A DNA stretch of 64,000 bases from assembly GCF_056746865.1 (NCBI RefSeq), contig NZ_CM163382.1; one strand, written 5' to 3'. Shown here one piece after another: positions 4,078 through 52,894 of the stretch. The position numbers and the translations under genes were made by a program. A model generated the notes under the pieces. It ran no database searches, was not told where the DNA came from, and saw only the letters and a list, made by a program, of their open reading frames with translations. Each line of letters begins with the position of its first letter. The first letter of the stretch is position 1.

Positions 4078-4094
4078 TTTTACGCCAGCCTCTT

Positions 4095-4136: not shown

Positions 4137-4162
4137 ATGGTTTTTCATACAGGAAAACAACT

Positions 4163-16152: not shown

Positions 16153-16171
16153 GTGCCATCTCGCGTGTCTT

Positions 16172-19027: not shown

Positions 19028-19053
19028 CTGATTCAATCGACAGAATTTCATTA

Positions 19054-19269
19054 TTGCATGTAATTCCTTTGGACCATTATTTAATAAAAGATAAATCAGA
19101 AATTAAAAATGAAATTATTACCATTGTTGAGAAAGCGTGTCAAGAATTAGACAGCAACATTTTAGATTATCTTGAGCATGGAATATCTATAAATCTATTA
19201 ATATTTCCAACTAATAATAAAGATGAATTATCAGGGTTAATGCAAAGGTTGATAAATAATTATGAATGA
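19054..19269 (+). CDS. 71-aa ORF with a TTG start, probably the detached C-terminus of the preceding gene
   Basis: Its frame is open from 19009. An 8-T instead of 7-T run at 19011-19017 would join it to 17804-19027. Its stop overlaps the helicase start (ATGAATGA). Confidence 0.45.
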   Translation: MHVIPLDHYLIKDKSEIKNEIITIVEKACQELDSNILDYLEHGISINLLIFPTNNKDELSGLMQRLINNYE

Positions 19270-20464
19270 TGCTATTAATTATATCTGCAATAGAATAAAA
19301 AATAGTGACGGATTTAGTTACTGTTATGAAAAACTATTGATATCTATTTCAAAGAATCTATTCAATCCAACTAGCAGCAACCCCATTACTCAGCGTGAAT
19401 ATCAACAATTGCTAAAATTCAGCGATTTTTTATCTAATTCCGAAAAAGAAGAAGATCGAAACCTAGCGTTAAAAATAATATCTGCAATATATGATCTTTA
19501 TAAAGAAGATCATAGTTGCCAATTACTGACAAAATCCATCCTTAGCAAACTTGGACTTTTTGCCGCTGAGGAAGTATTTACTGATAGTGATATAAAACTA
19601 CCATTATCCTATGAAATTTCTAGCAAATACAGAAAAATAAAAAATCGTATAAATGGTTCTGAGTACATATTCACTAATCGACAATGTGATGTGTACAGTG
19701 AGATCATGCAGAATGATTATTTTAGTTTTTCTGGCCCGACATCCCTCGGCAAATCATTCTTGATTAAACATGCTGCCGTTGATCTTATTGAAAATAATAA
19801 ACTAATTATTTTCATCCTTCCAACAAAAGCTTTATTAGAAGAATATCTAATTGACTTAAAATCTATACTCAATGAAAAAGGCGTGAAAGATATAAATGTA
19901 AGTAAATCCGTATCACAAGTTGACAAAGAAAGTAAAAATATATTGGTGTTTACACAAGAAAGATATAACTCATTTTTATATGAAAAGTCTTATGATAATA
20001 TGGATGTTGACTTTTTATTTATTGATGAAGCTCATAAAGTACTTGACAAAAAGAATAATAGAGCTATAACCCTATATAAAGTAATAAATAACTCCATAGA
20101 AAAATATGGTAAATTAAAAGTCATTTTTTCCTGCCCAGTAATTTCCAATCCTGATGTGTTTTTCAAAACATTTAATATACCGAATAGCAAGAAAACAAGA
20201 AGTTTATGTATTAAAGAATCTCCGGTAAATCAAGATTTGTACTTTGCAAATTATCAAGATAATAATTTTGTCTATTTTGATTCTATTTTAAATAAAAAAA
20301 TTAATTTCAATGTAAATAATGCTTATCAAAATGACTTTGAAATAATCAGAGGATTAGCACAACAATCCAAGTCAAACCTTATCTACGTATCAAGTAAAAC
20401 AGAATGTATAAGGAAATGTAACGAATTTCTAGAGTATTTAATTCGGGAAAAAAAGTATCGATAA
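19262..20464 (+). CDS. SF2 DExH helicase, N-terminal part (RecA1 domain); gene split by a frameshift
   Basis: Walker A FSGPTSLGKSF, motif II FIDEAHKV, motif III-like VIFSCP. It ends 7 nt after an A7 run at 20448-20454. Confidence 0.8.
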   Translation: MNDAINYICNRIKNSDGFSYCYEKLLISISKNLFNPTSSNPITQREYQQLLKFSDFLSNSEKEEDRNLALKIISAIYDLYKEDHSCQLLTKSILSKLGLFAAEEVFTDSDIKLPLSYEISSKYRKIKNRINGSEYIFTNRQCDVYSEIMQNDYFSFSGPTSLGKSFLIKHAAVDLIENNKLIIFILPTKALLEEYLIDLKSILNEKGVKDINVSKSVSQVDKESKNILVFTQERYNSFLYEKSYDNMDVDFLFIDEAHKVLDKKNNRAITLYKVINNSIEKYGKLKVIFSCPVISNPDVFFKTFNIPNSKKTRSLCIKESPVNQDLYFANYQDNNFVYFDSILNKKINFNVNNAYQNDFEIIRGLAQQSKSNLIYVSSKTECIRKCNEFLEYLIREKKYR

Positions 20465-20502
20465 CAACAGACGATGAACTTATTTCCGAGTCAAAAATAA
20501 TC

Positions 20503-21786
20503 ATGGAGTATATTCATAAAGATTTTAACTTAGCTCATGTATTAAAATATGGTATAGCATTTCACCATGGTTCACTACCTCTATTTATAAGAAAAAGAAT
20601 AGAGGACTTATATTCCAAAAAGAAAATAAATTTTATCTTTTGCACATCAACTTTACTTGAAGGGGTAAACTTACCCACAAAGAATGTTTTTATTTATCCA
20701 TTCCCTAAAAAGACTGTTAACGATGAAAAAAAATGCCGATTAGATTTTTGGAATCTGGCGGGGCGAGCTGGAAGATACAGAAGTGAATTGACTGGTAACA
20801 TAGTATGCCTGAATACCGCTGATAATAACTGGAGCAATGCAGATGCTAAAATTAGCCTAGGTAATAATGTTATTATAGAGGATGAAATAAACTCAACATT
20901 ACTACGCCATCAAAAAATATTAAATTATTTTGATGGTAAAGTTAAATCTCCAACTAATGACATTATTCAACTCAGCTCACTTATTCTATCAGAAATATTA
21001 ACTTATTTAGATAAAGGTTATATAGGGCGAATTTTAAATACCTTTAATGAAAAGATTCGGTTTATGCTTATTGATTCAGGAAAAAAACATCTTGATCGTA
21101 ATAGAATTATTGAAATAGATAAAGTGACCTTTTCAGAAAATCATATATTCTCAACATCCATACACGCTAAAGCCCAACTCAATGCTAAAAATAAAGAAAA
21201 ATTATTGCGTTCTTATAGCAGAGAGGATGTTTTCAATTATTTGGAAACAATAAATGAAATATATGGCCTGCGTAACACCCCTGATTCATTAAACCAACTG
21301 TGCATTGTGACTTATTCGTGGCTCATGGGTAATACGCTGAATTTATTAATATCAAACGCTATTAAATATAGCAATTCAGTTAGAGATCCTATTAGCTATA
21401 GATGGGTTAAATTTGATAAAACCAATCCTGATCATATAAACGCAAAAATAATGGAGGCAATACAATGCATTGAATCTGAAGTTACTTTTAAACTTGAAAC
21501 ATGTATTGCTCATTTTTATCAGCTATGTCAATCAATTCACGGCGATGAAAATGCAGGCATTAATCTTTCACCTTATTTAGAATATGGAACATTAGATACT
21601 AACATCATAGAACTTCAAGAGTTTGGTTTCTCTCGTTTAGCCGCAATTGAAATTATAGCAAAGCACAAAGAGTGTGTTACATTCAAAACAAATGAGACAT
21701 CATTGCAAATAAACACTCAGAAATTAAGAGCTAAGATTGAAAAGCACAGTGTAATTGATAGAGAACTATCATGGTTGAATTTATAA
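20503..21786 (+). CDS. SF2 DExH helicase, C-terminal part (RecA2 domain plus C-terminal extension)
   Basis: GIAFHHGSLPLFIRKRIEDLY, FCTSTLLEGVNLPTKNVFI and NLAGRAGRY are Ski2/Hel308-like motifs IV-VI. The frame is open upstream back to 20422 and joins 19262-20464 if the A-run had 8 A. Confidence 0.8.
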   Translation: MEYIHKDFNLAHVLKYGIAFHHGSLPLFIRKRIEDLYSKKKINFIFCTSTLLEGVNLPTKNVFIYPFPKKTVNDEKKCRLDFWNLAGRAGRYRSELTGNIVCLNTADNNWSNADAKISLGNNVIIEDEINSTLLRHQKILNYFDGKVKSPTNDIIQLSSLILSEILTYLDKGYIGRILNTFNEKIRFMLIDSGKKHLDRNRIIEIDKVTFSENHIFSTSIHAKAQLNAKNKEKLLRSYSREDVFNYLETINEIYGLRNTPDSLNQLCIVTYSWLMGNTLNLLISNAIKYSNSVRDPISYRWVKFDKTNPDHINAKIMEAIQCIESEVTFKLETCIAHFYQLCQSIHGDENAGINLSPYLEYGTLDTNIIELQEFGFSRLAAIEIIAKHKECVTFKTNETSLQINTQKLRAKIEKHSVIDRELSWLNL

Positions 21787-21940
21787 TTCAGCCATGATAA
21801 ATAATAATTTGAAAGATAAATAGGTTGTAATGATATAACCTATTTATCTTCTCGTTACATGAATTTCATAAGGATTTTTATACGGGGTATAAAATATCAT
21901 TTTATATTTAACGCGGTATACTGGTAACCTAACCGAATGA

Positions 21941-22420
21941 TTAATCATCATCTAAATTATAATCATGGTAAATAGCCAGTTGCTTGTTGATTGGTAATTT
22001 ATTGATTTTTAAGGCCAACTCGATAGAGGATGCCGATAACATCTTTCTTTCTTCATCTGAAGTTCGTTCAACACCTTCAACTTGGTAGAGCAAAGCATTT
22101 AGCATCTTTTTTATAAATATACCTCGCTGTTCATCAGACAAATGTTCAGCCAAAGTCATTAGTAGACCTAATTCCCTTTTTACTCGTTCGCTATCTTGAG
22201 ATTGACCTGTTTCCTCACCTAGTAACCAAGCCGGACTAACTCCAGTAGCATGAGCGATCTTCTGAAGTTGCTCAATTCCATTCGGAAGCGAATCTCCGGC
22301 AACATATCCACGGATCGTAGAGTACGGGATATCACATTTTTGTGCCAGATCACGCATGGAATCGCCTGTCATAGCGAGAAGTTTCTCTAATCTGGCACTA
22401 AATTCACTCTTAATCATCAT
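21941..22420 (-). CDS. XRE-family helix-turn-helix transcriptional regulator
   Basis: 159 aa. The N-terminus LEKLLAMTGDSMRDLAQKCDIPYSTIRGYVAGDSLPNGIEQLQKIAHATGVSPAWLLGE is a classic Cro/CI-type HTH. Low GC, convergent with the helicase gene. Confidence 0.85.
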   Translation of the reverse strand: MMIKSEFSARLEKLLAMTGDSMRDLAQKCDIPYSTIRGYVAGDSLPNGIEQLQKIAHATGVSPAWLLGEETGQSQDSERVKRELGLLMTLAEHLSDEQRGIFIKKMLNALLYQVEGVERTSDEERKMLSASSIELALKINKLPINKQLAIYHDYNLDDD

Positions 22421-22466
22421 ACTCCGATTTTGTAACCATATGAATGATAAGAAAAACAGATGAACT

Positions 22467-22511
22467 ATCGAAAATTAGATATTTATCACTTTAATTTGTC
22501 TAATTTTCGAT
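22467..22511. promoter_or_regulatory. 13-bp inverted repeat upstream of the XRE gene; candidate operator
   Basis: ATCGAAAATTAGA (22467-22479) and TCTAATTTTCGAT (22499-22511) are exact reverse complements with a 19-bp spacer, about 50-90 bp upstream of the XRE start. Confidence 0.5.
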
Positions 22512-25674: not shown

Positions 25675-26018
25675 ACAAACGGCGCAGGGTAGCTCCCTGT
25701 GCCAGTTCCATATGATTTTGCTAATTCTACTCACTGGTATATTCACTCGTTAGGCTTTGGCCCGCAGATATATTAATGTTTTCCATCCTGCCGCAACAAA
25801 ACCCCACACACGATTGTATGTTTTTTAGTCATCAAGGTGAATAGAGGTATTTTATGGCTATGACCTTTTTCACCTCCCTGCCAATAGTATCATGCTAAAC
25901 CTCTCATCTATGTTTATTGCGCCATAATAGTCAACAAGTATTTCAAAAAAGTCCCAAGCAAATTATAATGCTGGAGTTTCATAATGTCCCTTTAAAAACC
26001 ATTTTAAGAAGAGCTATT

Positions 26019-27170
26019 ATGTCCCTCCCTACAAATTTTAATGATATTCTTCGTCTTTTTGAAAAAGATTACGATACAGCCAAAGAAGATAATGCCTTAA
26101 GTGCACGCGGACAATTTCTGCAACTTTACCCCCTTAATCGCCTAAAAAAAATGACGCTTGATGACTATGTCATCGGCAAAGGCACGGCCTCATTTTGTGC
26201 TTGTGTTGAAGTAAAAACCAGAACATGGGCAAATATGCAAGGTGCGACGGCGCTCAAATTTGGTATTTATTATGGAAAATCAAAATCAGATCCAGCCGTC
26301 CGCTATCGTTTTACTCAGAAATTTGGCGATGATGATAGTACTAATAAAGAAGTTTTCGCTAATGTTAAAGACGCTTTACTAGACCTAATACAGTCAGGGA
26401 AAGAATTAGATTTTAGAGCGATTGACGAGAACCCCCTATCCCAAATGTTTAAGGCTAAAATATTGAGCCTTTACTTTCCAGAACACTTTATAAACATTTG
26501 CAGCAAAGATCATCTTAAAGAAATTGCTATGAAAATGGGTATAAAAGAGCAACAGTTTATTAGTAAATATCAACATTTGTTATTCAAGAAAAAACTAGAG
26601 CATAAAATCACCCGAAACTGGAGCAATCCAAAATATATGTCCTTCCTTTATGCCCAGTTCATACGTAAGGATCTTAGCAGCGCTCCTGCTGTGATAGTTA
26701 AAAAACCACAAAAAAGAAACCATCCCGAAGTCAATTTCGAAGAAATAACGGACAATCGTGATTTAATAGGCAAAAAAAGCGAAGAATATGCATTAAACTG
26801 GGAAAAAAACCGCCTAATCGGTCTCGGCTATTCAAAACTAGCTGAGGAAATAGATGATCGCCGTAATCGTCCAACTTATGGTTACGACTTTCTTTCTTTT
26901 AATGCCCCAGGTGATGAGCGATACATCGAAGTAAAATCAATTGGCCGAGATGGAAAAGAGGGAGCATTCCGTTTTTTCCTCTCAGGAAATGAACTCACCG
27001 TTTCTAATTTAAGTAACCACCGTAAAAACTATTATTTTTATCTTGTACAGTATGGGAAAGATGGAGAGCCATGCAATCTATATGTAAAACATGCTCAAGA
27101 TCTTTACACTAATAGTGAAATGACCCCTTGTGCTTACGTTGTTAGGTTCGATCTGGAAGAACCTGCTTAA
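26019..27170 (+). CDS. fusion protein with a C-terminal DUF3883-type restriction-endonuclease-fold domain
   Basis: The C-terminus EEYALNWEKNRLIGLGY...YGYDFLSFNAPGDERYIEVKSIGRDGKEGAFRFFLSGNELTVS...YYFYLV fits the DUF3883 GYD..S/..IEVK signature. ATG 26019 has only a purine-rich AAGAAGAG stretch upstream and no clear Shine-Dalgarno. The ORF track starts at 25917. Confidence 0.7.
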   Translation: MSLPTNFNDILRLFEKDYDTAKEDNALSARGQFLQLYPLNRLKKMTLDDYVIGKGTASFCACVEVKTRTWANMQGATALKFGIYYGKSKSDPAVRYRFTQKFGDDDSTNKEVFANVKDALLDLIQSGKELDFRAIDENPLSQMFKAKILSLYFPEHFINICSKDHLKEIAMKMGIKEQQFISKYQHLLFKKKLEHKITRNWSNPKYMSFLYAQFIRKDLSSAPAVIVKKPQKRNHPEVNFEEITDNRDLIGKKSEEYALNWEKNRLIGLGYSKLAEEIDDRRNRPTYGYDFLSFNAPGDERYIEVKSIGRDGKEGAFRFFLSGNELTVSNLSNHRKNYYFYLVQYGKDGEPCNLYVKHAQDLYTNSEMTPCAYVVRFDLEEPA

Positions 27171-32731: not shown

Positions 32732-32835
32732 TGCTACGCCCGCAAAAGCTCGCTAAAGGGCCTTTAAAGGCCTTTAAGGGTAAGGGAGGGAAGTGCGGGA
32801 TTTGGGGCGGGGAACGGTAGACAAATTCAGTCCTC

Positions 32836-33010
32836 ACGACGGAGACTGTTCAAATGTCTCTGTACTGACGCCCCAATATGGCTTTACCACCGTCTCCGAT
32901 TGTTGAACACGTCAATGTCATCGAAGATATCTGCACGATCCAGATCCTGGGTTTTGTAGGCCCGTTTTCTGATGCACTGCTTTTTCAGCGAACTGAAGCA
33001 AGGCCATAGA
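32836..33010 (-). pseudogene. IS3-family transposase (OrfB) C-terminal remnant
   Basis: The minus strand translates to FSSLKKQCIRKRAYKTQDLDRADIFDDIDVFNNRRRW*SHIGGVSTETFEQ. This resembles the conserved IS3-family C-terminus (..SLK.E.I......R....IF.YIE.FYNR.RRHS.LGG.SPEQFE) but carries an internal stop. Confidence 0.6.
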
Positions 33011-33082
33011 AGTAAAACAGTACCGCTGGCAACTGGGCATTTTCTCGCTTTAGCGGAGACCAACAGTATGCTTAGATTCAGT

Positions 33083-33622
33083 TTATGCCGTCAGCCGATA
33101 GTGCGACTGCACCAGACCCGAAGGGAAGCTGCGGCTGGATAATAGCGTCAAATCGATATCATGGGGTAATACTCCGAATAGCGGTTTTCCCGAACCGAGC
33201 AGAACAGGAACAGTTGTGATAACGATATCGGCAACCAGACCTTCGCGCAGGAACGACTGTATTAACTGCCCGCCATCGATATAAACCCGGTGCACGTTCT
33301 TCTCCATAAGGTCAGCAAGAGCCTCCCTTGGCGTGCGGCATGAAAACTGTACTTTACCCTTCAGCGCCTTGGGCACGGGGGTATCGGTTAGCTGCCGGGA
33401 AAGCACCAGCACGGGCCGATCATAAGGCCATTCGTCAAAAGTCAGCACCTTCTCATAGGTGCCTCGTCCCATAATGATCCAATCTTTGTCCGCGATGAAT
33501 GCGGCATAGCCATGATCTTCTGTCGGGTCATCGCGCTTTAACAGCCAGTCGATATCGCCATCCTGTCGGGCGATATAACCATCAAGACTGACCGCGATGA
33601 AAACATGTGTGGTGACCATCAA
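33083..33622 (-). CDS. RibD_C / dihydrofolate-reductase-like family protein
   Basis: 179 aa with HVFIAVSLDGYIARQDGDIDWL, IIMGRGTYE and VYIDGGQLIQSFLREGLVADIVITTVPVLLGSGKPLF. Confidence 0.8.
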   Translation of the reverse strand: MMVTTHVFIAVSLDGYIARQDGDIDWLLKRDDPTEDHGYAAFIADKDWIIMGRGTYEKVLTFDEWPYDRPVLVLSRQLTDTPVPKALKGKVQFSCRTPREALADLMEKNVHRVYIDGGQLIQSFLREGLVADIVITTVPVLLGSGKPLFGVLPHDIDLTLLSSRSFPSGLVQSHYRLTA

Positions 33623-33678
33623 GTGCTCCGTTTTCAGGTTGCATATATCTCGTTGAGTTTAGCAATGTTCGCTCCAGG

Positions 33679-33736
33679 CACGAAGCGAGCAAGTTACCTA
33701 AGTTGAAGGTCCGCAGGGAGCGAGGAGCAGAAGTTC
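33679..33736. repeat. left copy of a 58-bp imperfect direct repeat flanking the 33844-34866 gene
   Basis: CACGAAGCGAGCAAGTTACCTAAGTTGAAGGTCCGCAGGGAGCGAGGAGCAGAAGTTC matches 35066-35123 at 44 of 58 positions in an ungapped alignment done by hand. Confidence 0.65.
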
Positions 33737-33843
33737 GAAGCACATCATGAAGTAAGTTTTAAAATGGGAGATAACTTGCTTTTACATATTTTCCAATGCA
33801 ATATCATACCCTTTTAAAAATAAATCAGATATATGAGGTGAAA

Positions 33844-34866
33844 ATGTCTAGTCTTAATTTATTCGATGATGTCGTACCTTTAGAAAAACAGCATCCAATA
33901 TATATAATGATGAAAAAGGAACGCTATGAACCGGAGAGAGAAGTAATTAACCAATGGGCAAAAGGATTTCTAGACAGGGATAATAAGTTTACAAAAGAAT
34001 TTCAAACAAGTTTTGAACCTTGCCTATGGGAGTTATATCTTTTTGCTTATCTTAAAGAATTGGGTTTAAGGAACGACTTTTCATACGATGCACCTGACTT
34101 CATCGTCAATGAACCTGGGTTTTGCATTGAGGCAACCATAGCCCTTCCGGCACAAGGAGCCCCTGGAGCGCATGGTTTCAGTACGGAAGATATGCCAAGA
34201 GATTTTAATAAGTTTAATTCTGAGGCATCTATTCGACTTAGCAATAGTTTTATATCAAAGGTAAAAAAATTAAGATCGAGATATTCTCAACTTCCTCAAT
34301 GTAAAGAAAAACCTTTTGTTATCGCCATAGCTTCCTTCGACCGACCTTTTGCGCACTTTGCCGCAGCCAGACCCATACTTGCAACATTATATGGTTTATA
34401 TCATGATGAAGAAGCAACCATTGAATCAGGATCAAAGAGCATAATTTCTTATAACGTTGAGGCTGCGGTAAAAAAAGAAAATGTTAATATAGCCATGGGG
34501 TTATTTTGCACGCCTGATTATTCGGATGTAAGTGCTGTGATTTATAGTAGTTTAGCTACTTGGGGAAAAGTAAGAGCTTTGGCGGACAATCCTTCAGCTC
34601 TAACAATTTATACAACCTTTACCCCAAGAGAAAATTCATTATATCCTAAAGTTCATCAAGCCAAAAAAAATGATTATATAGAGCATCTGGCAGATGGATT
34701 GTATATTTTACATAACCCATTTGCCAAGTATCCGTTGCCTAAAGAGACGCTAAGCCACCCTAGAGTAGCACAAGGTTATGTTGAATCTGATGGATACGTC
34801 AATTTTGTAGCGCCAGAGGATTTTCTTTTATTGCGTTTTTTACAATCATTCAATCTTAAAGATTAG
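33844..34866 (+). CDS. uncharacterised protein, paralog B of the 10733-11905 product
   Basis: ATG 33844 is preceded by GAGGTG. 340 aa with FQTSFEPCLWELYLFAYL, APDFIV..FCIEAT, KPFVIAIASFD, IAMGLFC..DVSAVIYS and DGLYILHNPFA. Confidence 0.75.
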   Translation: MSSLNLFDDVVPLEKQHPIYIMMKKERYEPEREVINQWAKGFLDRDNKFTKEFQTSFEPCLWELYLFAYLKELGLRNDFSYDAPDFIVNEPGFCIEATIALPAQGAPGAHGFSTEDMPRDFNKFNSEASIRLSNSFISKVKKLRSRYSQLPQCKEKPFVIAIASFDRPFAHFAAARPILATLYGLYHDEEATIESGSKSIISYNVEAAVKKENVNIAMGLFCTPDYSDVSAVIYSSLATWGKVRALADNPSALTIYTTFTPRENSLYPKVHQAKKNDYIEHLADGLYILHNPFAKYPLPKETLSHPRVAQGYVESDGYVNFVAPEDFLLLRFLQSFNLKD

Positions 34867-35065
34867 TAAATATGGTCATATTTATTTACTTTACATAGAT
34901 AAAGTCTAAAGATGGCACTTCCTTTAAACTCAACTACCTATGATTTAGAGTGGTTGTCCGGCCTGCTTCCGTAACCGTTAGTTCGACTGACGAGATTCCT
35001 GTTTCCCTCTAAAAGACTTGGTTGATTAAAACAGGTCACCGAATAGCCATTTAGTCCACTTTGAC

Positions 35066-35123
35066 CACGAAGCGACCGAACTAACTGAGCAGAAGGTCCG
35101 TTATGAGCGAGGAACGGAAGTTC
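35066..35123. repeat. right copy of the 58-bp imperfect direct repeat
   Basis: CACGAAGCGACCGAACTAACTGAGCAGAAGGTCCGTTATGAGCGAGGAACGGAAGTTC, same orientation as the left copy. Confidence 0.65.
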
Positions 35124-35196
35124 ACAGTTGATCTCACACCCAAATAGTCGCATTACTAACATTGCTGCGTGTTAATCAACAGGCAGCAGGTCACTC

Positions 35197-36294
35197 TTAT
35201 TTTCTTGATAGGCTTTGTATAGTATGAATAAACCTTACAAAGTTATGAAGAAGCTCGTGATTTTCCTCTGATATACCATCTGGGTCAAAGTGCATCACGT
35301 CGTTACGAATTATTCTGACCTTGTCGAGCTCTTTAGTAAATATTTTCTTATCTATTTGAAGTTCGGTTTTTTTCCACAATTCTGGATTTTCAAAAAGTCG
35401 TATATATTCCCCAAAGGTTAAATCTGCGACCGACTCTATAACCCGTTCGCTGTCAAATGGATTAACGATGCTAACAAGCTCATCTTTCGTAAATTTTCCA
35501 TCTATCAGCTTACGAATATGATTTTCGATTTCAGATAGTAAAAGAAAAGGTTCTGACAACTGTCTGAACTGAGAACTAAGATCGGTAGTAGTTATAATCC
35601 CACTAATTCTTTGATCAGAAGATCGCACTAATACGTAAGCATACTCAATAATTCTAGGTAGTGCAGAAAAAATAGAGTCACTGGCGTTTATTTCCCTGTG
35701 TGGCTTCATATAATCACGCACAACCGCAGATTCTGATTGGGTCAACGCTAGTATTGGAGCAATGCTTTCCCAACTAATAACACCTTTAACATCTCGCTCG
35801 CTGGTCATAACGGGTAGTTGAGAGTAGTCATGCCGCAACATCAATGTGATGGCTTCTGTTAATGTAGCGTCAGGTTTCACGGTCACTAGTTTAACATCCG
35901 ATGCTTCGAGTCGACTAACACGGAAGGCTGGCTCGGAAACTGCACCGGAAATTAGTTCATCATGCGGCTGAAATACTGTTTCAGGTGTAGCCAATTCGGC
36001 GTTACTTGATTCGGTTTCTTCATGTAAACATTCACCTGCTTCATGGGGCGTTGCGTCATTCCCCGGAGGTGCATAGATAGTAATTTTTGCATCCAGCGGC
36101 ACACTATCAAAATCAGGTTCGGTTTTAACTCCTAAGCTTTCTAATGCTTTGCGAATTTTGTACGCAACCATGTAGCCTCGACGCTCTGCGCCAAACCAGC
36201 TTATGAATTCTCGCACTGATACTGGGTTTGAGGACATACCGTCTTTTAGTTCACGAAGGATTTCGTTAAGTCTTTCTCGATTTTCTACTGCCAT
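35197..36294 (-). CDS. CBS-pair protein with a C-terminal HEPN-like domain (Rx4H motif)
   Basis: 365 aa. Two CBS-like segments (VKLVTVKPDATLTEAITLMLRHDYSQLPVM..VKGVISWESI and VRDYMKPHREINASDSIFSALPRIIEYAYVLVRSSDQRISGIITTTDL). The C-terminal helical region contains IIRNDVMHF (RNDVMH encoded at 35290-35307). Confidence 0.7.
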   Translation of the reverse strand: MAVENRERLNEILRELKDGMSSNPVSVREFISWFGAERRGYMVAYKIRKALESLGVKTEPDFDSVPLDAKITIYAPPGNDATPHEAGECLHEETESSNAELATPETVFQPHDELISGAVSEPAFRVSRLEASDVKLVTVKPDATLTEAITLMLRHDYSQLPVMTSERDVKGVISWESIAPILALTQSESAVVRDYMKPHREINASDSIFSALPRIIEYAYVLVRSSDQRISGIITTTDLSSQFRQLSEPFLLLSEIENHIRKLIDGKFTKDELVSIVNPFDSERVIESVADLTFGEYIRLFENPELWKKTELQIDKKIFTKELDKVRIIRNDVMHFDPDGISEENHELLHNFVRFIHTIQSLSRK

Positions 36295-36940
36295 AAAATT
36301 TTCTCCATGTAGGTTGTCGGCTACTGTTAGGTTTCAATCTTGATTCAGGCTTCTCACGCTTTTTTTAAAATCTGGACAACGAGGCTGCACTGACTTTTTC
36401 AGCTCACCTCAGATTGCACCATCCCATACACATAGCTCAGATTCCTAATGTTCAGTATAAGGAGGCCAGAATACGAATTGCCCTTACCGCTAGTGCCAGC
36501 GCGTTGAGTTTAGTAGATGCCTTATTCATTTAGAATTTGATAAAAATACAAGACTCGGACAACAAGCTGCAATATTAATCGTTATTTTTCCACTCGAGGC
36601 CCACCGTCCGTTTCTGGCACAGGGCTGCTGTTGCAGCCCTGAAAACCTTAGACTTCAATCGATTCAAAGATCTCTAATGCATCATCTACTTCAATACCCA
36701 GATAACGGACTGTGCTTTCCAGTTTCTTATGGCCCAACAGAAGTTGGATCACCCGAAGATTCTTAGTTTTCTTGTAGATAAAGTAGGGTTTTGTTCTTCT
36801 CATGGAACGTGTGCTGTAAAGCGAATCTTCGAGACCAAGCTTTCCTGCCCACCCATGAAAGATTCGGTTGTATTGTAGGGTTGATATGAACCGCCCCGGA
36901 AATCCTGGAGACTAAACTCCCTGAGAAAGAGGTAAACAGG

Positions 36941-37267
36941 ATGACTAAAAATACTCGTTTTTCCCCCGAAGTCCGTCAGCGGGCGATTCGTATGGTTCTG
37001 GAAAGTCAGGATGAATATGACTCACAGTGGGCGGCAATTTGTTCCATTGCCCCAAAGATTGGCTGTACGCCGGAGACTCTGCGTGTCTGGGTTCGCCAGC
37101 ATGAGCGGGATACCGGGGGCGGTGATGGTGGGCTCACCAGCGCTGAACGTCAGCGTCTGAAAGAGCTGGAACGTGAAAATCGTGAACTGCGCCGCAGTAA
37201 CGATATCCTTCGCCAGGCTTCCGCTTATTTTGCGAAGGCGGAGTTCGACCGCCTCTGGAAAAAATGA
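36941..37267 (+). CDS. IS629 OrfA (HTH transposase subunit)
   Basis: 108-aa ORF inside the IS. It overlaps orfB at AAAAAATGATG, the frameshift region. Confidence 0.9.
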
Positions 37268-38154
37268 TGCCACTGCTGGATAAGCTGCGTGAGCAGTACG
37301 GGGTCGGACCGGTATGCAGCGAACTGCATATTGCCCCGTCAACGTATTACCATTGTCAGCAACAGCGACATCATCCGGATAAACGCAGTGCCCGTGCGCA
37401 GCACGACGACTGGCTGAAGAGAGAGATACAGCGCGTATACGATGAAAATCATCAGGTGTACGGTGTGCGTAAAGTCTGGCGTCAGTTGTTACGGGAAGGA
37501 ATCAGGGTGGCCAGATGTACAGTGGCACGTCTCATGGCGGTTATGGGACTTGCCGGTGTTCTCCGGGGTAAAAAGGTCCGTACGACCATCAGCCGGAAAG
37601 CCGTTGCCGCAGGCGACCGCGTAAACCGTCAGTTCGTGGCAGAACGACCTGACCAGCTGTGGGTGGCTGATTTTACTTACGTCAGCACATGGCAGGGCTT
37701 CGTCTATGTGGCGTTTATCATTGATGTGTTTGCCGGATACATCGTGGGGTGGCGGGTCTCATCGTCTATGGAAACGACATTCGTGCTGGATGCGCTGGAG
37801 CAGGCGTTGTGGGCCCGTCGTCCGTCTGGCACCATCCATCACAGCGATAAAGGCTCTCAGTATGTGTCACTGGCCTATACGGAGCGACTAAAAGAAGCCG
37901 GATTACTGGCATCAACAGGGAGTACAGGCGACTCGTATGACAACGCGATGGCTGAGAGCATCAATGGTCTTTACAAAGCGGAGGTAATACACCGTAAGAG
38001 CTGGAAAAACCGTGCAGAAGTGGAACTGGCCACACTAACGTGGGTGGACTGGTATAACAATCGACGATTGCTGGGAAGGCTGGGCCATACTCCTCCGGCA
38101 GAAGCAGAAAAAGCTTATTATGCTTCCATCGGAAACGATGATCTGGCAGCCTGA
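37264..38154 (+). CDS. IS629 OrfB (DDE integrase-fold transposase)
   Basis: 296-aa ORF with [17 protein letters not shown] and the [11 protein letters not shown] region. Confidence 0.9.
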
Positions 38155-38923
38155 GTTCACAGATAAAACACTCTCCAGGAAACCCGGGGCGGTTCAATAT
38201 GTGCTGATTAGTTCCGATACGAGACCGGAACAAGAAGTCTTTATTGTGCAAATAATCAAGCTTTATCAATGCAGCAATAGCTTCTCTTGTTCCTTTGGTT
38301 ATCTCAAATTGCACAGGGCTACCGGTTTTCTGTTGCAACACCGTTGCTCTGCTTGAAACCAAGCGACCATATGCCACATCAGATACTTTGAGTTTGACCA
38401 GATCACAGCCTCGAAGCTTACTGTCCAGGGCCATATTGAACAGAGCTAAATCGCGCGTTTTGCCTTCCAGTTCAAGCCGGATTCGGGTCCCCCAGATATG
38501 AGATATCTGAAGTGGTCTTTTTTGGCCGATGATACGGTCTTTGTTCCACGGTGACGTGTTCATACTCAAATCTCCTGCAATGTGGGAGATTTGAGTATGG
38601 TTGTCCCTTATGAGCGCAGGCTGTGTGAAAACACTCACCAAATACTAAAATGTATGAGGTTATGCAAAATCTGGAATCAATCAGCTGATTATCAGAGTCG
38701 AATTTTACGTAGGGAAGATATTTTCAGCTCTGTTTTAGGCCATTTCTGCACTCAAAAACGTTTTCACACAGCCGCGGTCAGATCGCAATCTTGCACCACA
38801 ATCTGGTACGAGTCAGGCAAGCATTTGGGGTGAAAGCCTGTCCTGAGTGAGAATCTAACCAAGCATTGTGTTATGTTTAACAACTGGAGTAGACTACAAA
38901 ATCAATTAATTAAGGATCTTGAG

Positions 38924-43900: not shown

Positions 43901-45558
43901 GAAGCAATTAATGCGCCGCCGGATTGTTGCTCAACATGCTTAGCCTCACCACCGTCCTGAACCTCCAGAACGCCACCATTATTAAGTCTGGTGCTATCTG
44001 TTTTAGCCTCCTTCTGGACAATCAGCTTACCGCCAGCATCAATGGTAGTATTTTTCGCCGAGGTTTTAGCCATTACCGTCAGTTCGCCGGTATTTTCCAG
44101 CACAACATAATTAGCCTCTCCTCCGGTAATAGTGAAGTGAGAGAGCTTGTTGTATCCTTCGATATCAGTCCCTGCGCCCGTGTTGGCAACTAAAGCACTG
44201 CCCGTCTCCTGGTTAACCCCATGTGCAATACCGCCGGTATAGACAATCAGCGAGCCTCCGGCGCTAATATTGCTGCCAGTTGCCGTACCATCTTTCTCAA
44301 CAACCTGCCGGCTCCCAGAGGATATATTTGTCGTGTCAGCTTTCCCGCCGCTCTTGATATTTTGCGTTCCACTGTTGATATTGGTGCCCGTGGCAATACC
44401 ATGATTATTAATATTCTGTGTGCCACCATTAATTATGGTATTTGTCGCGTTTCCGGCAACATCCATAACGCCGCCATTATCTATTCGGGTCGCATCAGCT
44501 TTAGCATTCGTTAAAACTGACATTGTTCCTTTATCTTTAATAATCGTCTTATTTGCCGAACCATATGCGTTTATGTCTAAATGACCACCGTTTTCCAGCA
44601 ACACATTCTCTGCCACGTTATTGTGGATGGAGAATGCCCCTTCACTATTCGTACCGCTCACCGTCAAATCGTAAGTCGTTACTTTTAAAGCGGCTCCATC
44701 GTGCTGAGTAATATTAGTTGCCGTACCACCTCTAACATCAAGCACGCCGCCGGAATAAACTTCAATAACATCCGAGGAGCTCGTGTTATCAACAATTTGC
44801 GTACCACCAGAATAGATCTGCGTATTTTTTGCCGTTGACTTACTATTCAGAGACTGAGTTCCGCCTTCAATCGTCGTGTCCAGCGCACGGCTCTCATATA
44901 CTCTTTGCTCACCGCCATTTTTAATGGCGGTTGTTTCTACTGTGCTCTGTTCAACATACTGTCGCCCACCATTTATGGTTGTGTTCGTCGCCAGACTTCC
45001 TTGCGTGATGTCCTGATAACCAGACTTATTTATCGTCGTACCGTCAACATGCCCCTGAGTTGATACTGACTGGCCTCCACCATCAATGATTGTTCCATTT
45101 GCAGTCCCCCCCTCTATGCGTGAAGTACCGCCCTTAATTGTCGTGTCATTGCTGGTACCACCTTTATAAACATATTGATTGCCACTTTCGATTATCGTGC
45201 CAGTAGAAATTCCTCCGTACTCAATTGACTGTCTGCCTCCATTAATGGTTGTATTATTAGCTTGCCCGTTAATATCGGCATGGATTGATACTAGTTGCTC
45301 GCCACCAGTTTCAATAATACTACTATTAGATATCCCACCATAGACCTCCTGCCGGCCATGGTTGATAATATGTGTGTTATTTGTTGTACCTCGTTCATCT
45401 ACTCGTTGGTTGCCATCTACAGTCTCATCGTTTACCACACCAATAACATTAGTAGTGAAGGCCGCCATCCCGGGCTGGGCATATATTAAGGCAGATATCA
45501 ATAAGGAAAGTACTGAGCGGCGAAAATAATAGGGACTGGTCCTGTTCATAAATTTCAT
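40975..45558 (-). CDS. ypjA: AIDA-I/Ag43-family autotransporter adhesin (YpjA-like)
   Basis: Start chosen at MKFMNRTSPYYFRRSVLSLLISALIYAQPGMA (signal peptide); the ORF track extends to 45678. The long passenger carries degenerate about 19-aa beta-helix repeats (..TINGGxQxV..G.A..T.I..GG.), then a PDPK-rich linker, then a C-terminal beta-barrel ending AVAGVNWSF. Confidence 0.88.
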   Translation of the reverse strand: MKFMNRTSPYYFRRSVLSLLISALIYAQPGMAAFTTNVIGVVNDETVDGNQRVDERGTTNNTHIINHGRQEVYGGISNSSIIETGGEQLVSIHADINGQANNTTINGGRQSIEYGGISTGTIIESGNQYVYKGGTSNDTTIKGGTSRIEGGTANGTIIDGGGQSVSTQGHVDGTTINKSGYQDITQGSLATNTTINGGRQYVEQSTVETTAIKNGGEQRVYESRALDTTIEGGTQSLNSKSTAKNTQIYSGGTQIVDNTSSSDVIEVYSGGVLDVRGGTATNITQHDGAALKVTTYDLTVSGTNSEGAFSIHNNVAENVLLENGGHLDINAYGSANKTIIKDKGTMSVLTNAKADATRIDNGGVMDVAGNATNTIINGGTQNINNHGIATGTNINSGTQNIKSGGKADTTNISSGSRQVVEKDGTATGSNISAGGSLIVYTGGIAHGVNQETGSALVANTGAGTDIEGYNKLSHFTITGGEANYVVLENTGELTVMAKTSAKNTTIDAGGKLIVQKEAKTDSTRLNNGGVLEVQDGGEAKHVEQQSGGALIASTTSGTLIEGTNSYGDAFYIRNSEAKNVVLENAGSLTVVTGSRAVDTIINANGKMDVYGKDVGTVLNSAGTQTIYASATSEKANIKGGKQTVYGLATEANIESGEQIVDGGSTDKTHINGGTQTVQNYGKAINTDIVSGLQQIMVNGTAEGSIINGGSQVVNEGGLAENSVLNEGGTLDVREKGSATGIQQSSQGALVATTRATRVTGTRADGVAFSIEQDAANNILLANGGVLTVESDTTSAKTQVNAGGREIVKTKATATGTTLTGGEQIVEGVANETTINDGGIQTVSANGEAVKTTINEGGTLTVNDNGKATDIIQNSGAALQTSTANGIEISGTHQYGTFSIAGNLATNVLLENGGNLLVLAGTEARDSTVGNGGAMQNLGQDFATKVNSGGQYTLGRSKDEFQALARAEDLLIAGGTAIVYAGTLADASVSGATGSLSLMTPRDNVTPVKLEGVVRITDSATLTIGNGVDTTLADLTAASRGSVWLNSNNSCAGTSNCEYRVNSLLLNDGDVYLSAQTAAPATTNGIYNTLTTSELSGSGNFYLHTNVADSRGDQLVVNNNATGNFKIFVQDTGVSPQSDDAMTLVKTGGGDASFTLGNTGGFVDLGTYEYVLKSDGNSNWNLTNDVKPNPDPNPNPKPDPKPDPKPDPKPDPTPAPTPTPVPENRITPSTAAVLNMAATLPLVFDAELNSIRERLNIMKASPHNNNVWGTTYNTRNNVTTDAGAGFEQTLTGMTVGIDSRNDIPEGIATLGAFMGYSHSHIGFDRGGHGSVGSYSLGGYASWEHESGFYLDGIVKLNRFESNVAGKMSSGGAANGSYRSNGLGGHIETGMRFTDGNWNLTPYASLTGFTADNPEYHLSNGMESKSVDTRSIYRELGATLSYNMRLGNGMEIEPWLKAAVRKEFVDDNRVKVNNDGNFVNDLSGRRGIYQAGIKASFSSTLSGHLGVGYSHGAGVESPWNAVAGVNWSF
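41921..42003. repeat. short tandem repeat encoding the Pro-rich linker PNPDPNPNPKPDPKPDPKPDPKPDP of the autotransporter
   Basis: Reiterated GGATCCGGTTTTGGGTCTGGTTTT-type 12-bp units read directly. They also create a spurious plus-strand GSGFGSGFG ORF. Confidence 0.7.
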
Positions 45559-45957
45559 CCTCTGAAAAGTGAATACTGAGTAGCGTTTAAGCGACCTTAG
45601 CTTTGCTGCAACATCAGCCCACAGGCACCAGACCAGGGGATTCATCCTGAAGAGACAGCGCAAGTGTATTGTGTTCACCGCTCATCAAAGACATCATGAT
45701 GAAATGATGATATTCCGCATAAGAATGAGGCATTTTTTTAAGACATTGTGCTGAAGGATGATTGGATAAAAAAGTCAATCTTTTCAGGAAATACGGCGTA
45801 TTCTTTTCTTTCGACATTGAAGCCATCGGAAAAATAAAATGATTTACATAATCGTTTCTGATGAATATCTTCTGCTCACATAAAAATCACACAATAACAT
45901 TGAGATTGCAGATTGTTTTACTTTTACAGCTTTCGTCCCCTCATTGTTGGGCAAATA

Positions 45958-46072
45958 TTGGTAGAGTCAGAGCACGAAAGTTAATACCACGTTCGCACAG
46001 CTCCTCCAACAGCACGGCAAGATGCCGCATACTGCGCCCCAGTAGGTTCAGTTTGCAGACAACCAGTGTGTC
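45958..46072 (-). pseudogene. pinH: serine invertase/resolvase (Pin-like) fragment
   Basis: The minus strand translates DTLVVCKLNLLGRSMRHLAVLLEELCERGINFRALT. This matches Pin residues about 57-93 ([37 protein letters not shown]). No N-terminus or C-terminus is present. Confidence 0.7.
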
Positions 46073-46215
46073 ACCTACCGATAATGTCCTGAGCCGTTTG
46101 TTCAGTCCGGCCCTGCTGCCACGGTTTTACGTTGAAGTGGTAACCCTGAGCACGCAGTTCATCAGTCAGGCATGGTGCACCATAACGCTGTTGTTGCTGG
46201 GTAAGATCAAAAAAC
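46073..46215 (-). pseudogene. IS3 OrfB fragment
   Basis: The minus strand translates [23 protein letters not shown], then loses frame. This matches IS3 Ins[29 protein letters not shown]. Confidence 0.65.
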
Positions 46216-46482
46216 TTTCAGGCAGCTAAGGAAAGTTGAATCAGACATTAGATGAAATATTTCAACCAATTACAGCACCAATTTAAACTCAGTAAATCAC
46301 AGCGCAGATCAAGGGGTTACGTGAAAGCGTAGCCCCTTTTTCTTTGGTAGTAGCAGCAAAATGGTTGTAGTGTAAAAAATAATCCCGTTTAATCAATCAA
46401 TAATACATATTGTTTCAATCTACGTTATTATCTCTTTGTAAAACCTGCAGTTTATTTATCATTGAAAACTGCTTTTAGAACT

Positions 46483-47937
46483 TTATACAAGGGGACGATT
46501 CTCAATGGGACTATCCTCAGGGGAATTTTCCTCAGAGGAACTATCATCAAAGTCATCATCCATAGATGAAATACCATCGAATGGTGCCACGCCCGTGATT
46601 AGTTTTATTTTATTATTACGATCAGTCAAGACTCCATTTAAACCATTTTCGCTGACGGATTTTAATAATTTATCATAACTCTTATTGTCATCAGGCACAT
46701 TAAAAATACACGGAGTATCAACATCAAACAATGACGTTCCCCAGTTCACATATTGAATATCATAGTTACTGAAGTTCTGTCCAGAAAAGAAGCATCCCTT
46801 AAAATCCAATCCACGTAAATTATATAAACTACCCTCTTCTTTTGGGAGAGCAATTTTAATTCTGGCTATCTCCCAGACAAAATTGCCATTTTTGTATTTG
46901 AATACCGTTTCAAGCTCTCCTCCAGACAACTTGACTTCTGGAAATAATTTGAAATTAAACCCTACATTATTATGTGTCAACGTAGATGAACAAAAGATGG
47001 AAAAAGCTTGCAGTGCTGAATTATAGCTATCGATTTTATCTTGAGGCTGCGCTCTTGGTAAAAACTTATAGCAACACTCATAAAAATTAAGTAGAAACTC
47101 TGATGACCTTCCATTTTTATCAAATAATACCCGCTGAAAATGCTGCACAAACTTATTCGTTTTTTCTTGAATATCTATGGTGTGTTCCTTTGACTCTAAC
47201 AAAGATGAATCCTGTTGAAGTGCATTGCTCATCTGGTTGAGGAACAACTGCATTTCTTTCAACTTATCTCCATAGTGACCTTTAACTTGCTGAGAATTTT
47301 TAGTTACAGTTGAAACCTTATCTGTGTGGTTTTCATATAAATTATGTGATTCCATACAGTCATTTGGCGGCGTTTCTGAAATAACACTACGCGTTCTACC
47401 TGGCTGAAGTGAAGCAACATGAAAATCACTTTTTCTTATATTGCCGAATAGGGTCTGTTCATTTCTCTTAGCGCATTCAATAAACTGATCAACATTATTT
47501 TTATTAGATGACAGGTTAATTTCAGAAACCGCATTTTCTTTGTTCTCCAGCTTTAGTTTAACGAGAAGGTCTTCCCACACCGTTTTTTTTAAAAATACTA
47601 CGTCAGGCTCACCATCAGCAACTAACTCTTGATTATTATCAAAGTGTACGTTGTATACTTTTAATTTATTTTCATTAGCATCATATTTAATACGTTTTAA
47701 TTGTTCTCCGGCTCCCATAATGACAAAAGCATTGCCTTCATGATATTTACATTCAGACATCATTTTTTGTAAAATTTCAAGAGCACCGTTATACGTCCCT
47801 GAGGCAGCTTCTTTACAAATTAATTTTATAATACTATAAGCTAGTAACTCCATGGATTTAGAAGATTTTCTTTCATTACAATTTCCACTATTTATAAATG
47901 TGCTAGTGTTAATTTCGTTGCTTTTACTAACTAACAT
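46483..47937 (-). CDS. hypothetical 484-aa protein (ypjB/ypjC-region homolog) with a short pentapeptide-repeat-like stretch and an acidic tail
   Basis: Long low-GC ORF. NLRGLDFKGCFFSGQNFSNYDIQYVNWGTSLF is pentapeptide-like. Position between the pinH relic and ileY. Confidence 0.65.
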   Translation of the reverse strand: MLVSKSNEINTSTFINSGNCNERKSSKSMELLAYSIIKLICKEAASGTYNGALEILQKMMSECKYHEGNAFVIMGAGEQLKRIKYDANENKLKVYNVHFDNNQELVADGEPDVVFLKKTVWEDLLVKLKLENKENAVSEINLSSNKNNVDQFIECAKRNEQTLFGNIRKSDFHVASLQPGRTRSVISETPPNDCMESHNLYENHTDKVSTVTKNSQQVKGHYGDKLKEMQLFLNQMSNALQQDSSLLESKEHTIDIQEKTNKFVQHFQRVLFDKNGRSSEFLLNFYECCYKFLPRAQPQDKIDSYNSALQAFSIFCSSTLTHNNVGFNFKLFPEVKLSGGELETVFKYKNGNFVWEIARIKIALPKEEGSLYNLRGLDFKGCFFSGQNFSNYDIQYVNWGTSLFDVDTPCIFNVPDDNKSYDKLLKSVSENGLNGVLTDRNNKIKLITGVAPFDGISSMDDDFDDSSSEENSPEDSPIENRPLV

Positions 47938-48693
47938 TGTCTTTTCCTCAGTTAATGTCTACATGGCTATTTTTAATGTTATTATTGTTTGTCACTATAA
48001 AAAATCGCTCATTTGAGACAATTGCTGGCATTAACAGCTTCATATGCTATACATGGTACTTTTAATTAATTTAGCACAAGAATGTTAAATTTAATAAGCA
48101 AAAGGTTATTTCACTGTATGATAAAAACCACCCGTTATAATTTATTCGTGAGAATCGTTTTTTGAGTGTTAGAAATTTATATCTAAATAGCGTTGATTAA
48201 TGACCAAAGCCAGACTCCTGTAATGCTCACAAGACTCTTCTGCATTCGACGGCGGTTCTAGTCAGTAGTAGATGTTTAAGGCGTGGCAGAGACATTTCAT
48301 CCTTACTCTACAGCATTGGTCCACATACAAATCGTGGTTGTGACACTTCACTTATCATCAGTGAGCGAACAGAGAATAGTTCAGTGATTTGAGTAATTAA
48401 CCTGATTAAATGAAGAGGCATGATAAATGATAATACTCTGGCTTTATCGTTAATTACTTAATTCCACATGTAAGCAATTTGCCCGCTTGGCATAGCGGGC
48501 ATTTTTTCCAGGTACTTTTGAATGAGTACTGATGGATAAATACATTGCAGTGGCGTGCCACGTACCAAAACACCAGCCCTCATTCGAAACTACCTACCGC
48601 ACTGCTTCTTTAAAATGGCGTTAGTCGTGAAATATTGACCGCCATCGAGTCCCCCTTGTAACCTTAACTCTTCCTGATACGTGAATAATGATT

Positions 48694-48769
48694 TGGTGGC
48701 CCTTGCTGGACTTGAACCAGCGACCGGACGATTATGAGTCGTCTGCTCTAACCACTGAGCTAAAGGGCC
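48694..48769 (-). tRNA. ileY: tRNA-Ile2 type with CAU anticodon (lysidine-modified in ileX/ileY)
   Basis: The reverse complement GGCCCTTTAGCTCAGTGGTTAGAGCAGACGACTCATAATCGTCCGGTCGCTGGTTCAAGTCCAGCAAGGGCCACCA is 76 nt. It has a cloverleaf, anticodon loop CT-CAT-AA and a CCA end, and is near-identical to my recollection of ileX. Confidence 0.9.
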
Positions 48770-49328
48770 TTGAGTATGCAATAACAATACTTATATACCA
48801 CGCAATAAACATGATGATCTTATGATGTAAATAACAGATTTTTATACGTTCTCATTCATCCTGGGTCGTCATTACCTGCGACATAAAACCCGACACCGAT
48901 TCCATTCACAAAGTCGATACTCTCAGTCAACAAGCAAATGCTAATACTTAGCACTATTTATAGTTACCATCGATTCAATGATAGTTTGTAATGATTTTGT
49001 ATCTAATAATATAACTTTATTACATTAACTGAAGAGTTTTCGCATCATTATGATATCTGTTACTTTTCACCCCATAAAAATAAACTTCATATAGCAATAT
49101 ATTCTTTCATAGATCTTATTCTGCTAATCATTAGTTTCGTATGAGCGATTTTTGACAGTTGCCTCTCCAGACCACATCGATAATTAAAAAAACAGATTTA
49201 AGCATTATCCTTTTCCATATAAATATTGGATAAAAGTAGGACATCTGTTTGCAATTACTTTCACAACAATTAAACATTTTTATGTTTCCGTATACACCAT
49301 ATTACTCTACCATTAGAGGAACTTTATT

Positions 49329-51581: not shown

Positions 51582-51591
51582 TTTAATGTTA

Positions 51592-51619
51592 TATCTGCCC
51601 CGCTAAAACGGGGCAGATA
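51592..51619 (+). terminator. hairpin downstream of the amylase-family gene
   Basis: TATCTGCCCCG-ctaaaa-CGGGGCAGATA, a perfect 11-bp stem. The downstream T-run is weak. Confidence 0.5.
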
Positions 51620-51802
51620 ATATGTTTAGTTTACTAACGGTCATTTTGCAGTGAAGCCATTTACTGTTTTTTATCGACCAGATAATCTGTTCTCTGATGG
51701 TAGCTCCCCCTAACCTGTTGCTTTAGTTATTCATTTCCTGTCTCACTTTGCCTTAATACCCCACATTAAATGTTACTAATTTGTTGTCTTTGATCACAAT
51801 AA

Positions 51803-52894
<1,092 letters not shown>

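Follow-up and report, generated by a model that had tools for sequence, protein, structure and literature searches.

Inverted repeats flanking the Z/fun genes of P2-like coliphages were reportedly described by Nilsson, Karlsson and Haggard-Ljungquist in 2004 (Mol Biol Evol 21:1), so that the sequence family considered here had already been noticed in P2 phages at that time; its only annotation consists of "inverted repeats" in GenBank records of the P2 Z/fun region dating from 2003-04. According to a review that cites this work, the repeats allow fun to be exchanged site-specifically between phages and the chromosomes of enterobacteria (PMC8987985). The mechanism that moves defence systems between P2-like phages, cryptic islands, and plasmids has been called unknown (PMC9122126, 2022; PMC13586616, 2026), and neither of these two hotspot studies mentions the sites. 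Here we analyze a 64,000-nucleotide stretch of an E. coli chromosome (the window; RefSeq assembly GCF_056746865.1, contig NZ_CM163382.1), in which two direct repeats of this family bracket a PD-T7-5 anti-phage gene. Comparison with relatives suggests that each repeat is probably a composite 66-bp site of a natural cassette-exchange system, integron-like in effect and built from heterospecific lox-like sites.

A repeat search recovered the pair reported in the initial annotation: positions 33679-33736 and 35066-35123 match over 58 nt at 44 positions (76%) in the same orientation with a spacing of 1387, and they do flank the open reading frame at 33844-34866. The conserved 19-mer GAGCGAGGANCNGAAGTTC occurs at only these two places in the window, where 0.06 occurrences would be expected by chance and 0 of 100 shuffles contained two matches. 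The repeat is therefore real; its 58-bp boundaries had to be redrawn, as alignment with relatives gives a conserved unit of 66 nt that starts 12 nt further left. This unit, at 33667-33732 and 35054-35119, accounts for the weaker similarity that had been noted upstream of the repeats. Its parts and the gene it brackets are as follows.

33667-33732, plus strand: element copy 1, a full double site (profile and alignment with relatives)
33667-33690: copy 1, site 1 (HP1), GTTCGCT-CCAGGCACGA-AGCGAGC
33691-33708: copy 1, spacer of 18 nt
33709-33732: copy 1, site 2 (HP2), GTCCGCA-GGGAGCGAGG-AGCAGAA
33733-35053: PD-T7-5 cassette, lying between both elements
33844-34866, plus strand: PD-T7-5 anti-phage gene, a single-gene system of 340 aa (PADLOC PD-T7-5, E=8e-102)
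35054-35119, plus strand: element copy 2, a full double site (profile and alignment with relatives)
35054-35077: copy 2, HP1, GTCCACT-TTGACCACGA-AGCGACC
35078-35095: copy 2, spacer
35096-35119: copy 2, HP2, GTCCGTT-ATGAGCGAGG-AACGGAA

The repeat is not confined to this locus. With copy 1 as the query, a sensitive BLAST search of 5426 complete E. coli genomes found relatives, 74-85% identical to it, in 1123, and a near-consensus copy found them in at least 1311 of the 5426 and on 662 plasmids, whose hosts include Klebsiella, Enterobacter, Pantoea, Citrobacter, and Salmonella. The E. coli copies always fell under "no annotated feature," between accessory genes. Pattern scans returned 49 and then 120 viral contigs along with many Enterobacterales genera; they also gave chance matches in GC-rich genomes (e.g., Streptomyces), which were removed by the profile step. 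Scored with a profile from which they had been left out, the window copies reach 56 and 40 bits, and the same profile matches phages P2 (locus L011) and P2-EC58 (L010) inside the annotated repeat: these are the sequences entered as left and right inverted repeats in GenBank AJ512683 (P2-EC58 Z region), with site 1 inside the "left inverted repeat" of P2-EC58. The window repeats and the P2 Z/fun repeats are thus one sequence family, and here too an accessory gene is bracketed (PD-T7-5, with DS-11 and a dihydrofolate reductase [DHFR]-like gene as neighbors). Elsewhere the element was found in a lambdoid prophage, between AbiH, SIR2, and hypothetical genes; in the tail-fibre-assembly/tail-sheath hotspot of a P2-like prophage; in CP4-57-like islands; in an IS1 composite with a NACHT gene; and on a plasmid, adjoining McrBC. 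Judged by this homology, the window repeats are decayed copies of a dispersed family and not a local duplication.

Across 101-126 unique copies, site 1 has the consensus GTCCGCT-nc-TGGCAC-nn-AGCGGAC and site 2 the consensus GTCCGCT-gt-GAGCGA-nn-AGCGGAC, and the 18-nt spacer between them has the consensus nAgnTaACTGAGCTGAAG. The element is thus a pair of 24-bp palindromic sites that share identical 7-bp inverted arms and differ in their highly conserved, asymmetric 6-bp cores; two inverted arms about a short asymmetric center are also the plan of lox, FRT, and dif sites. The window copies carry one to two mismatches per arm and a damaged site-1 core (in copy 1, degenerate arms and a degenerate HP1 core), and decay is greater in copy 2 than in copy 1. 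In 17 of 161 unique sites (~11%), a module of ~42 nt, ATTACTAACAGC...AACAGGGAGCAGGTCA, follows site 2 at a fixed offset of either 26 or about 56-58 nt, independently of gene strand and never upstream of the element (window 35152-35193 and loci L002, L003, L011, L013, L014, L019, L034, and L165); it may be an accessory binding site. Two other explanations of the conserved sequence were tried and rejected. A sigma-54 promoter, suggested by TGGCAC, lacks the -12 element (by eye). Both window copies are open in one frame that ends at a nearby stop; as a relic of coding sequence, however, they fail, since the 14 mismatches show no third-position bias (7/3/4) and an open frame of 19 codons is expected by chance. 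On an E. coli plasmid (L014, NZ_CP073625.1, positions 3950-5099), the end of an IS110-family transposase gene lies ~55 nt ahead of a copy of the element, and because palindromic repeats are common targets of IS110/IS1111 elements, the element sites may also serve as insertion targets.

The sites are ordered. Neighboring copies were co-oriented in 82 of 83 pairs, with a median spacing of 1353 nt, and arrays read, along the sites, as site 2 alone, cassette, site 1 plus site 2, cassette, and so on, closing with site 1 alone. This order fits 142 of 148 classified transitions (full to full, 67; full to site 1, 49; site 2 to site 1, 14; site 2 to full, 11; site 1 to site 2, 1); the others were site 1 to full (5) and site 2 to site 2 (1), and neither full to site 2 nor site 1 to site 1 occurred. 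Phage P2 is a simple case, in which site 2 adjoins gene FI, site 1 adjoins gene G, and the fun/Z genes lie between. Each cassette begins at a site-2 core and ends at a site-1 core, and all other stretches, from a site-1 core to a site-2 core, consist of a 42-nt linker, of the recombinase gene described below, or of the whole backbone of a P2-like phage, lambdoid prophage, island, or plasmid.

Breakpoints were located by comparing loci that share one flank, with positions counted from the first base of a site (the core is 10-15) and counts based on clusters. When only the left flank was shared, divergence set in just behind the core (position 16-17) or past the invariant arm, and in none of 21 pairs did it start in the variable spacer, where a uniform null places 26%. 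When only the right flank was shared, the last difference lay at or before position 9 in 27 of 39 pairs, within the core in 10, and further right in 2; 37 of the 39 were at or before position 13. Among P2-like phages, each of ~18 distinct junctions on the left comes after the constant backbone ...CTGACAGTCTGCTTTGAGCGA (...GTCTGCTTTGAGCGA), and each of 24 on the right comes before TGGCACAGAGCGGACTGTCAGATTAG. One cassette end was joined to three different partners, each time directly after TGGCAC. By sequence comparison, the junctions of both sites are bracketed by positions 9-16, a pattern predicted by crossover within a 6-bp overlap and not by homology-driven exchange over 66 bp.

A candidate enzyme is found within the arrays themselves. 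In the window it is a tyrosine recombinase of 200 aa, for which only the PF00589 catalytic domain is matched (E=1.6e-14); Xer/XerA matches are weak and below threshold, matches to "tyrosine-type DNA invertase" NCBIfam models are also weak (E=2e-4), and the FimB/FimE model PRK09871 gives 20.8 bits where its cut-off is 222. A phmmer search of PDB sequences gave no match, and the structure model (mean predicted local distance difference test score, 49.8) was too poor for a fold search. The protein belongs to a family with 7999 matches at E<=1e-5, the best 120 of which are 74-99% identical, spanning Enterobacterales and marine Gammaproteobacteria. We assign R51, K79, H148-x-x-R151, H174, and Y183, by eye, to the canonical catalytic motif; all are invariant or near-invariant in the family alignment. 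Codon 148 of the window allele encodes Arg, where at least 90% of the aligned family members have His; this H148R change may have inactivated the enzyme before an IS3-family insertion sequence (IS) entered the gene at codon 122, and the gene is intact in other strains with the same array.

What links this gene to the sites is the way it is framed. Its flanks are identical in plan in E. coli, Proteus, and marine contigs resembling integrative and conjugative elements (ICEs), the homologues being 80-92% identical. At the 3' end comes the terminator and then a site-1 core with its left arm, this half-site abutting terminator and stop codon; at the 5' end a palindrome lies across the ribosome-binding site, followed by a site-2 core with its right arm. 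Lying between a site-1 core and a site-2 core, the recombinase gene occupies the position of the linker between cassettes, and we take the conservation of this framing across bacterial orders as the clearest indication that enzyme and sites form one system. The 5' palindrome is itself conserved in the E. coli, Proteus, and marine homologues (window, L006, L009, L019, and L305-L307). In the mRNA, base pairing of this palindrome would span the Shine-Dalgarno sequence, pointing to a regulatory role, and by analogy with some insertion sequences it suggests translational silencing of read-through transcripts.

Taken together, the one-orientation dispersed family, the breakpoints at the cores, and the recombinase embedded between sites in several orders favor what the initial annotation had raised as one option, namely that the repeats serve a cassette system as its recombination sites and that this system is tied to the small tyrosine recombinase. 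We infer that recombination would be conservative and site-specific and would be catalyzed by this conserved 200-aa enzyme, likely acting both in cis and in trans. One site-1 by site-1 crossover together with one site-2 by site-2 crossover would swap a cassette, a natural counterpart of recombinase-mediated cassette exchange, and a cassette would not be deletable by its own two sites because their cores differ. Between like sites of an array, a linker plus cassette could be excised or inserted, and a circle of linker plus cassette integrating at a terminal site would reproduce the observed array order.

In the window, the order is DHFR-like cassette, element 1, PD-T7-5 cassette, element 2, DS-11 cassette, site-1 half-site, recombinase, and site-2 half-site. 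The features beyond the two elements and the cassette between them are listed here.

32884-33063, minus strand: IS3-family transposase remnant, which replaced the left (site-2) end of the DHFR-like cassette
33083-33622, minus strand: RibD_C/dihydrofolate-reductase-family cassette gene, the left neighbor (domain match)
35152-35193, plus strand: accessory conserved module ATTACTAAC...AACAGGCAGCAGGTCA downstream of HP2
35197-36294, minus strand: DS-11, CBS-domain anti-phage protein, the gene of the right neighbor cassette (NCBIfam NF053863, E=2e-121)
36606-36622, plus strand: site-1 half-site (left arm and core), GTCCGTT-TC-TGGCAC-AG, abutting the recombinase terminator and stop codon
36648-38563, minus strand: small tyrosine recombinase gene, 200 aa, split by the IS (codons 122-200 at 36651-36887, codons 1-122 at 38198-38563)
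36887-38196, plus strand: IS3-family insertion sequence inside the recombinase gene (inverted repeats at 36887-36911 and 38172-38196)
37222-37338: IS3-family frameshift pseudoknot (ALIL), 121 bits
38564-38596, minus strand: palindrome ACTCAAATCTCC-N8-GGAGATTTGAGT, directly 5' of the recombinase start codon
38603-38619, plus strand: site-2 half-site at the recombinase 5' end, GTCCCTT-AT-GAGCGC..., with the right arm lost in this strain

The array is probably a fossil, because its sites are decayed and its recombinase carries H148R and is split by the IS3-family element. Positions 32800-36800 (4 kb) are 100% identical in many strains. The PD-T7-5 cassette was found in this context only, within an identical array in 128 E. 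coli genomes, and no other E. coli context in which its breakpoints could be mapped was found; the array of strain 118UI differs solely by an IS5-linked deletion. The DHFR-like cassette is shared with Phytobacter, and the homology stops at 33672, inside the left arm of HP1. Elsewhere in the window, a distant PD-T7-5 paralogue, presumably the "paralog A" of the initial annotation, lies at 10853-11905 on the minus strand (26% identity over 366 aligned positions, E=1e-28); it has no flanking copies of the element. Besides the array, blocks at 28-40% GC at 16000-22500, 26000-27000, and 45000-52000 indicate other horizontally acquired segments.

The data disfavor three other accounts of the repeats. 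It is unlikely that cassettes are swapped through short linker homologies by RecA or Red/Rad52-like recombination, with the small recombinase as unrelated cargo. Such exchange would suit repeats that are 75-85% alike over ~66 bp, the many arrays residing in prophages that encode recombinases, and the lack of a small recombinase near most arrays; homologous and illegitimate recombination are both still considered in a survey of 2026 (PMC13586616). However, the breakpoints cluster at the two 6-bp cores and avoid the 18-nt spacer, terminal sites give only 24 bp of homology, and homologous exchange needs neither strict 2...1 polarity nor a single orientation; nor would it place the recombinase gene precisely between both cores across bacterial orders. 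More doubtful still is that the sites work as folded single-strand hairpins (attC-like sites, HUH nick sites, or cruciforms cut by SbcCD), with cassettes moving as single-strand or rolling-circle units. No compensatory covariation was detected in the arms of 126 unique copies (0-1 per pair), arm changes being one-sided; the window copies fold no better than shuffles (z-scores, -1.15 to +1.05); and no Rfam model matched at E<=1. These results set aside the structured RNA considered in the initial annotation, and they indicate that the arms are conserved as a protein-binding duplex site and not as a hairpin. A hairpin would account for the perfect 7-bp palindrome around a 10-nt "loop" with junctions inside that loop, and for the P2-like backbones, whose sequences outside site 2 and site 1 are mutually complementary (AATCTGACA before GTCTGCT, TGTCAGATT after AGCGGAC; L011 895-930 and 2504-2540 in phage P2, and L010). 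With these flanks the palindrome extends to ~16 bp, and it looks as if one long stem had been split by the first cassette; TGTCAGATTAG also follows the terminal site 1 in chromosomal islands (L006, L008, and L009). Insertion into a loop, however, predicts a single hairpin between cassettes, where in fact two sites lie with an 18-nt spacer between them, and the inspected annotated loci, which were not searched systematically, showed no HUH gene and instead a tyrosine recombinase embedded in the sites.

Least probable of all is regulatory or structural punctuation (a terminator, insulator, RNA processing site, or small RNA) or a selfish repeat of the repetitive extragenic palindromic (REP) or miniature inverted-repeat transposable element (MITE) kind, whose position at cassette borders would be a by-product. 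Terminators and MITEs are not expected to show an ordered 2/1 arrangement or core-centered breakpoints; the elements have no Rfam match, no significant fold, and no T-run, and their orientation is independent of gene strand. They are, to be sure, intergenic, palindromic, and GC-richer than the AT-rich cassettes, and a subset carries the extra conserved module downstream. The ends of a degraded mobile element, which had been a further suggestion for the window repeats, are likewise disfavored: the units form ordered 2...1 arrays with a conserved 18-nt spacer between them, and neither a related transposase nor the logic of terminal repeats and target duplications was seen in the inspected loci, where target duplications were not checked systematically.

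Several observations weigh against the cassette-exchange interpretation itself. It is a comparative reading, and the window copies alone are too decayed to inform it. The recombinase gene lies within the examined flanks of only ~10 of 218 element-bearing loci, and while elements are present in at least 1311 E. coli genomes, the gene is present in 800; with the gene so scarce, its enzyme would need to work in trans or no more than sporadically. The sites adjoining the gene lack their inner arms. The breakpoint counts, being cluster-based, are not phylogenetically independent, their resolution is limited by the invariant arms, and some breakpoints fall at 12-13, at 51, or elsewhere. No precise single-cassette presence/absence difference was found between loci in the 299 compared, and the complementary outer flanks of the P2-like backbones are neither required nor explained by a two-site model.

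Among described systems, integrons come closest in effect. They too have repeated sites in one orientation, mostly single-gene cassettes that are promoter-independent, a tyrosine recombinase, and cargo rich in anti-phage genes, and many of their arrays, like clusters of attC sites lacking an integron integrase (CALINs), have no neighboring integrase. The elements described here nevertheless lack the GTTRRRY core and the R''/L''/L'/R' hairpin with extrahelical bases of attC, and they present two heterospecific duplex-type sites per junction in place of one folded attC. The recombinase, at 200 aa against about 320 aa for IntI, has no N-terminal DNA-binding domain and no room for the IntI insertion, and it is found between cassettes and not at the end of the array. 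Cassette genes lie on either strand (73 versus 55), unlike the co-oriented genes of integrons, and the arrays are inside phages, islands, and plasmids. Engineered cassette exchange with Cre/lox or Flp/FRT shares the combination of identical inverted arms with a different asymmetric spacer, which makes cassettes exchangeable and not deletable, and its crossovers fall within the spacer, as proposed here. Those engineered sites have 13-bp arms and an 8-bp spacer, whereas the natural ones have 7-bp arms and a 6-bp core with 2 variable bp on each side, and the small recombinase, a candidate enzyme, is unrelated to Cre and Flp.

The R64 shufflon (recombinase Rci, about 380 aa, and its sfx sites) is also a tyrosine-recombinase system with many sites; Rci carries out inversion only, while the sites here are in direct orientation. 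The 7-bp sfx core, 5'-GTGCCAA-3' (PMC4176322), is the reverse complement of the TTGGCAC that is central in many site-1 copies (L002 6003-6026 and L011 2504-2527), which may be coincidence or a shared crossover preference; the sfx arms (TCCGGTNNNTGG and a variable left arm) are unrelated to those of the element. FimB and FimE resemble the small recombinase in being about 200 aa long and consisting of the catalytic domain only, but the element sites are unrelated to the fim 9-bp repeats and the outcome suggested here is exchange or excision and not inversion. REP sequences and bacterial interspersed mosaic elements, enterobacterial repetitive intergenic consensus sequences (ERIC/IRU), and MITEs are likewise short, palindromic, intergenic, and dispersed in Enterobacterales; the present elements differ in having no Rfam or sequence match to them, in being confined to accessory DNA, and in their ordered one-orientation arrays with breakpoints at the cores. 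The accessible literature, which does not include the 2004 paper of Nilsson and colleagues, yielded no account of the array order, of the two-core architecture, or of the embedded 200-aa recombinase, and none of the family's presence in lambdoid prophages, plasmids, Proteus, and marine elements.

In all, 128 unique cassettes, with a median length of ~1.4 kb and 41% GC, encode 113 protein families, most of them unannotated. Relative to the sites, the longest open reading frame is on the minus strand in 73 of these cassettes and on the plus strand in 55. Of 60 cassette proteins sampled, roughly a dozen matched defence families in PADLOC at E<=1e-10 (ThsB, DarT, PifA, QatA, PD-T4-5, PD-T7-1/5, and HEC-08). 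Since the scan covered 36 of the 60, with 24 transporter- or enzyme-looking proteins left out, this share is a lower bound. In marine metagenome or genome contigs of Cycloclasticus type (L299-L304), an 80%-identical recombinase with the same half-sites is placed between the arsenic- and copper-resistance modules of an ICE-like element, so the cargo is not limited to phage defence.

We are about evenly divided on a broader proposal, that these sites and this enzyme constitute an uncharacterized system of Gammaproteobacteria, resembling integrons but distinct in mechanism, in which a catalytic-domain-only recombinase of 200 aa and sites with two heterospecific cores shuttle single-gene cargo among elements. 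That cargo would be largely anti-phage defence, with transporters and enzymes as well, and the elements linked would be P2-like phages, lambdoid prophages, genomic islands, and plasmids, and perhaps also ICE-like elements, where only the recombinase with its half-sites was seen. At certain hotspots in phages and islands, such a system would be the missing mechanism by which defence systems are rapidly swapped. About one in four complete E. coli genomes carries this 66-bp feature, which is still without a name in annotation; in the P2 Z/fun hotspot its sites mark the limits of the genes that are swapped, and a candidate enzyme is built into the site architecture. If true, this interpretation would explain how defence genes are shared between unrelated mobile elements without flanking homology, would make the sites a sequence tag for finding new defence genes, and would provide a natural recombinase for two-site cassette exchange that is compact and might be useful in engineering.

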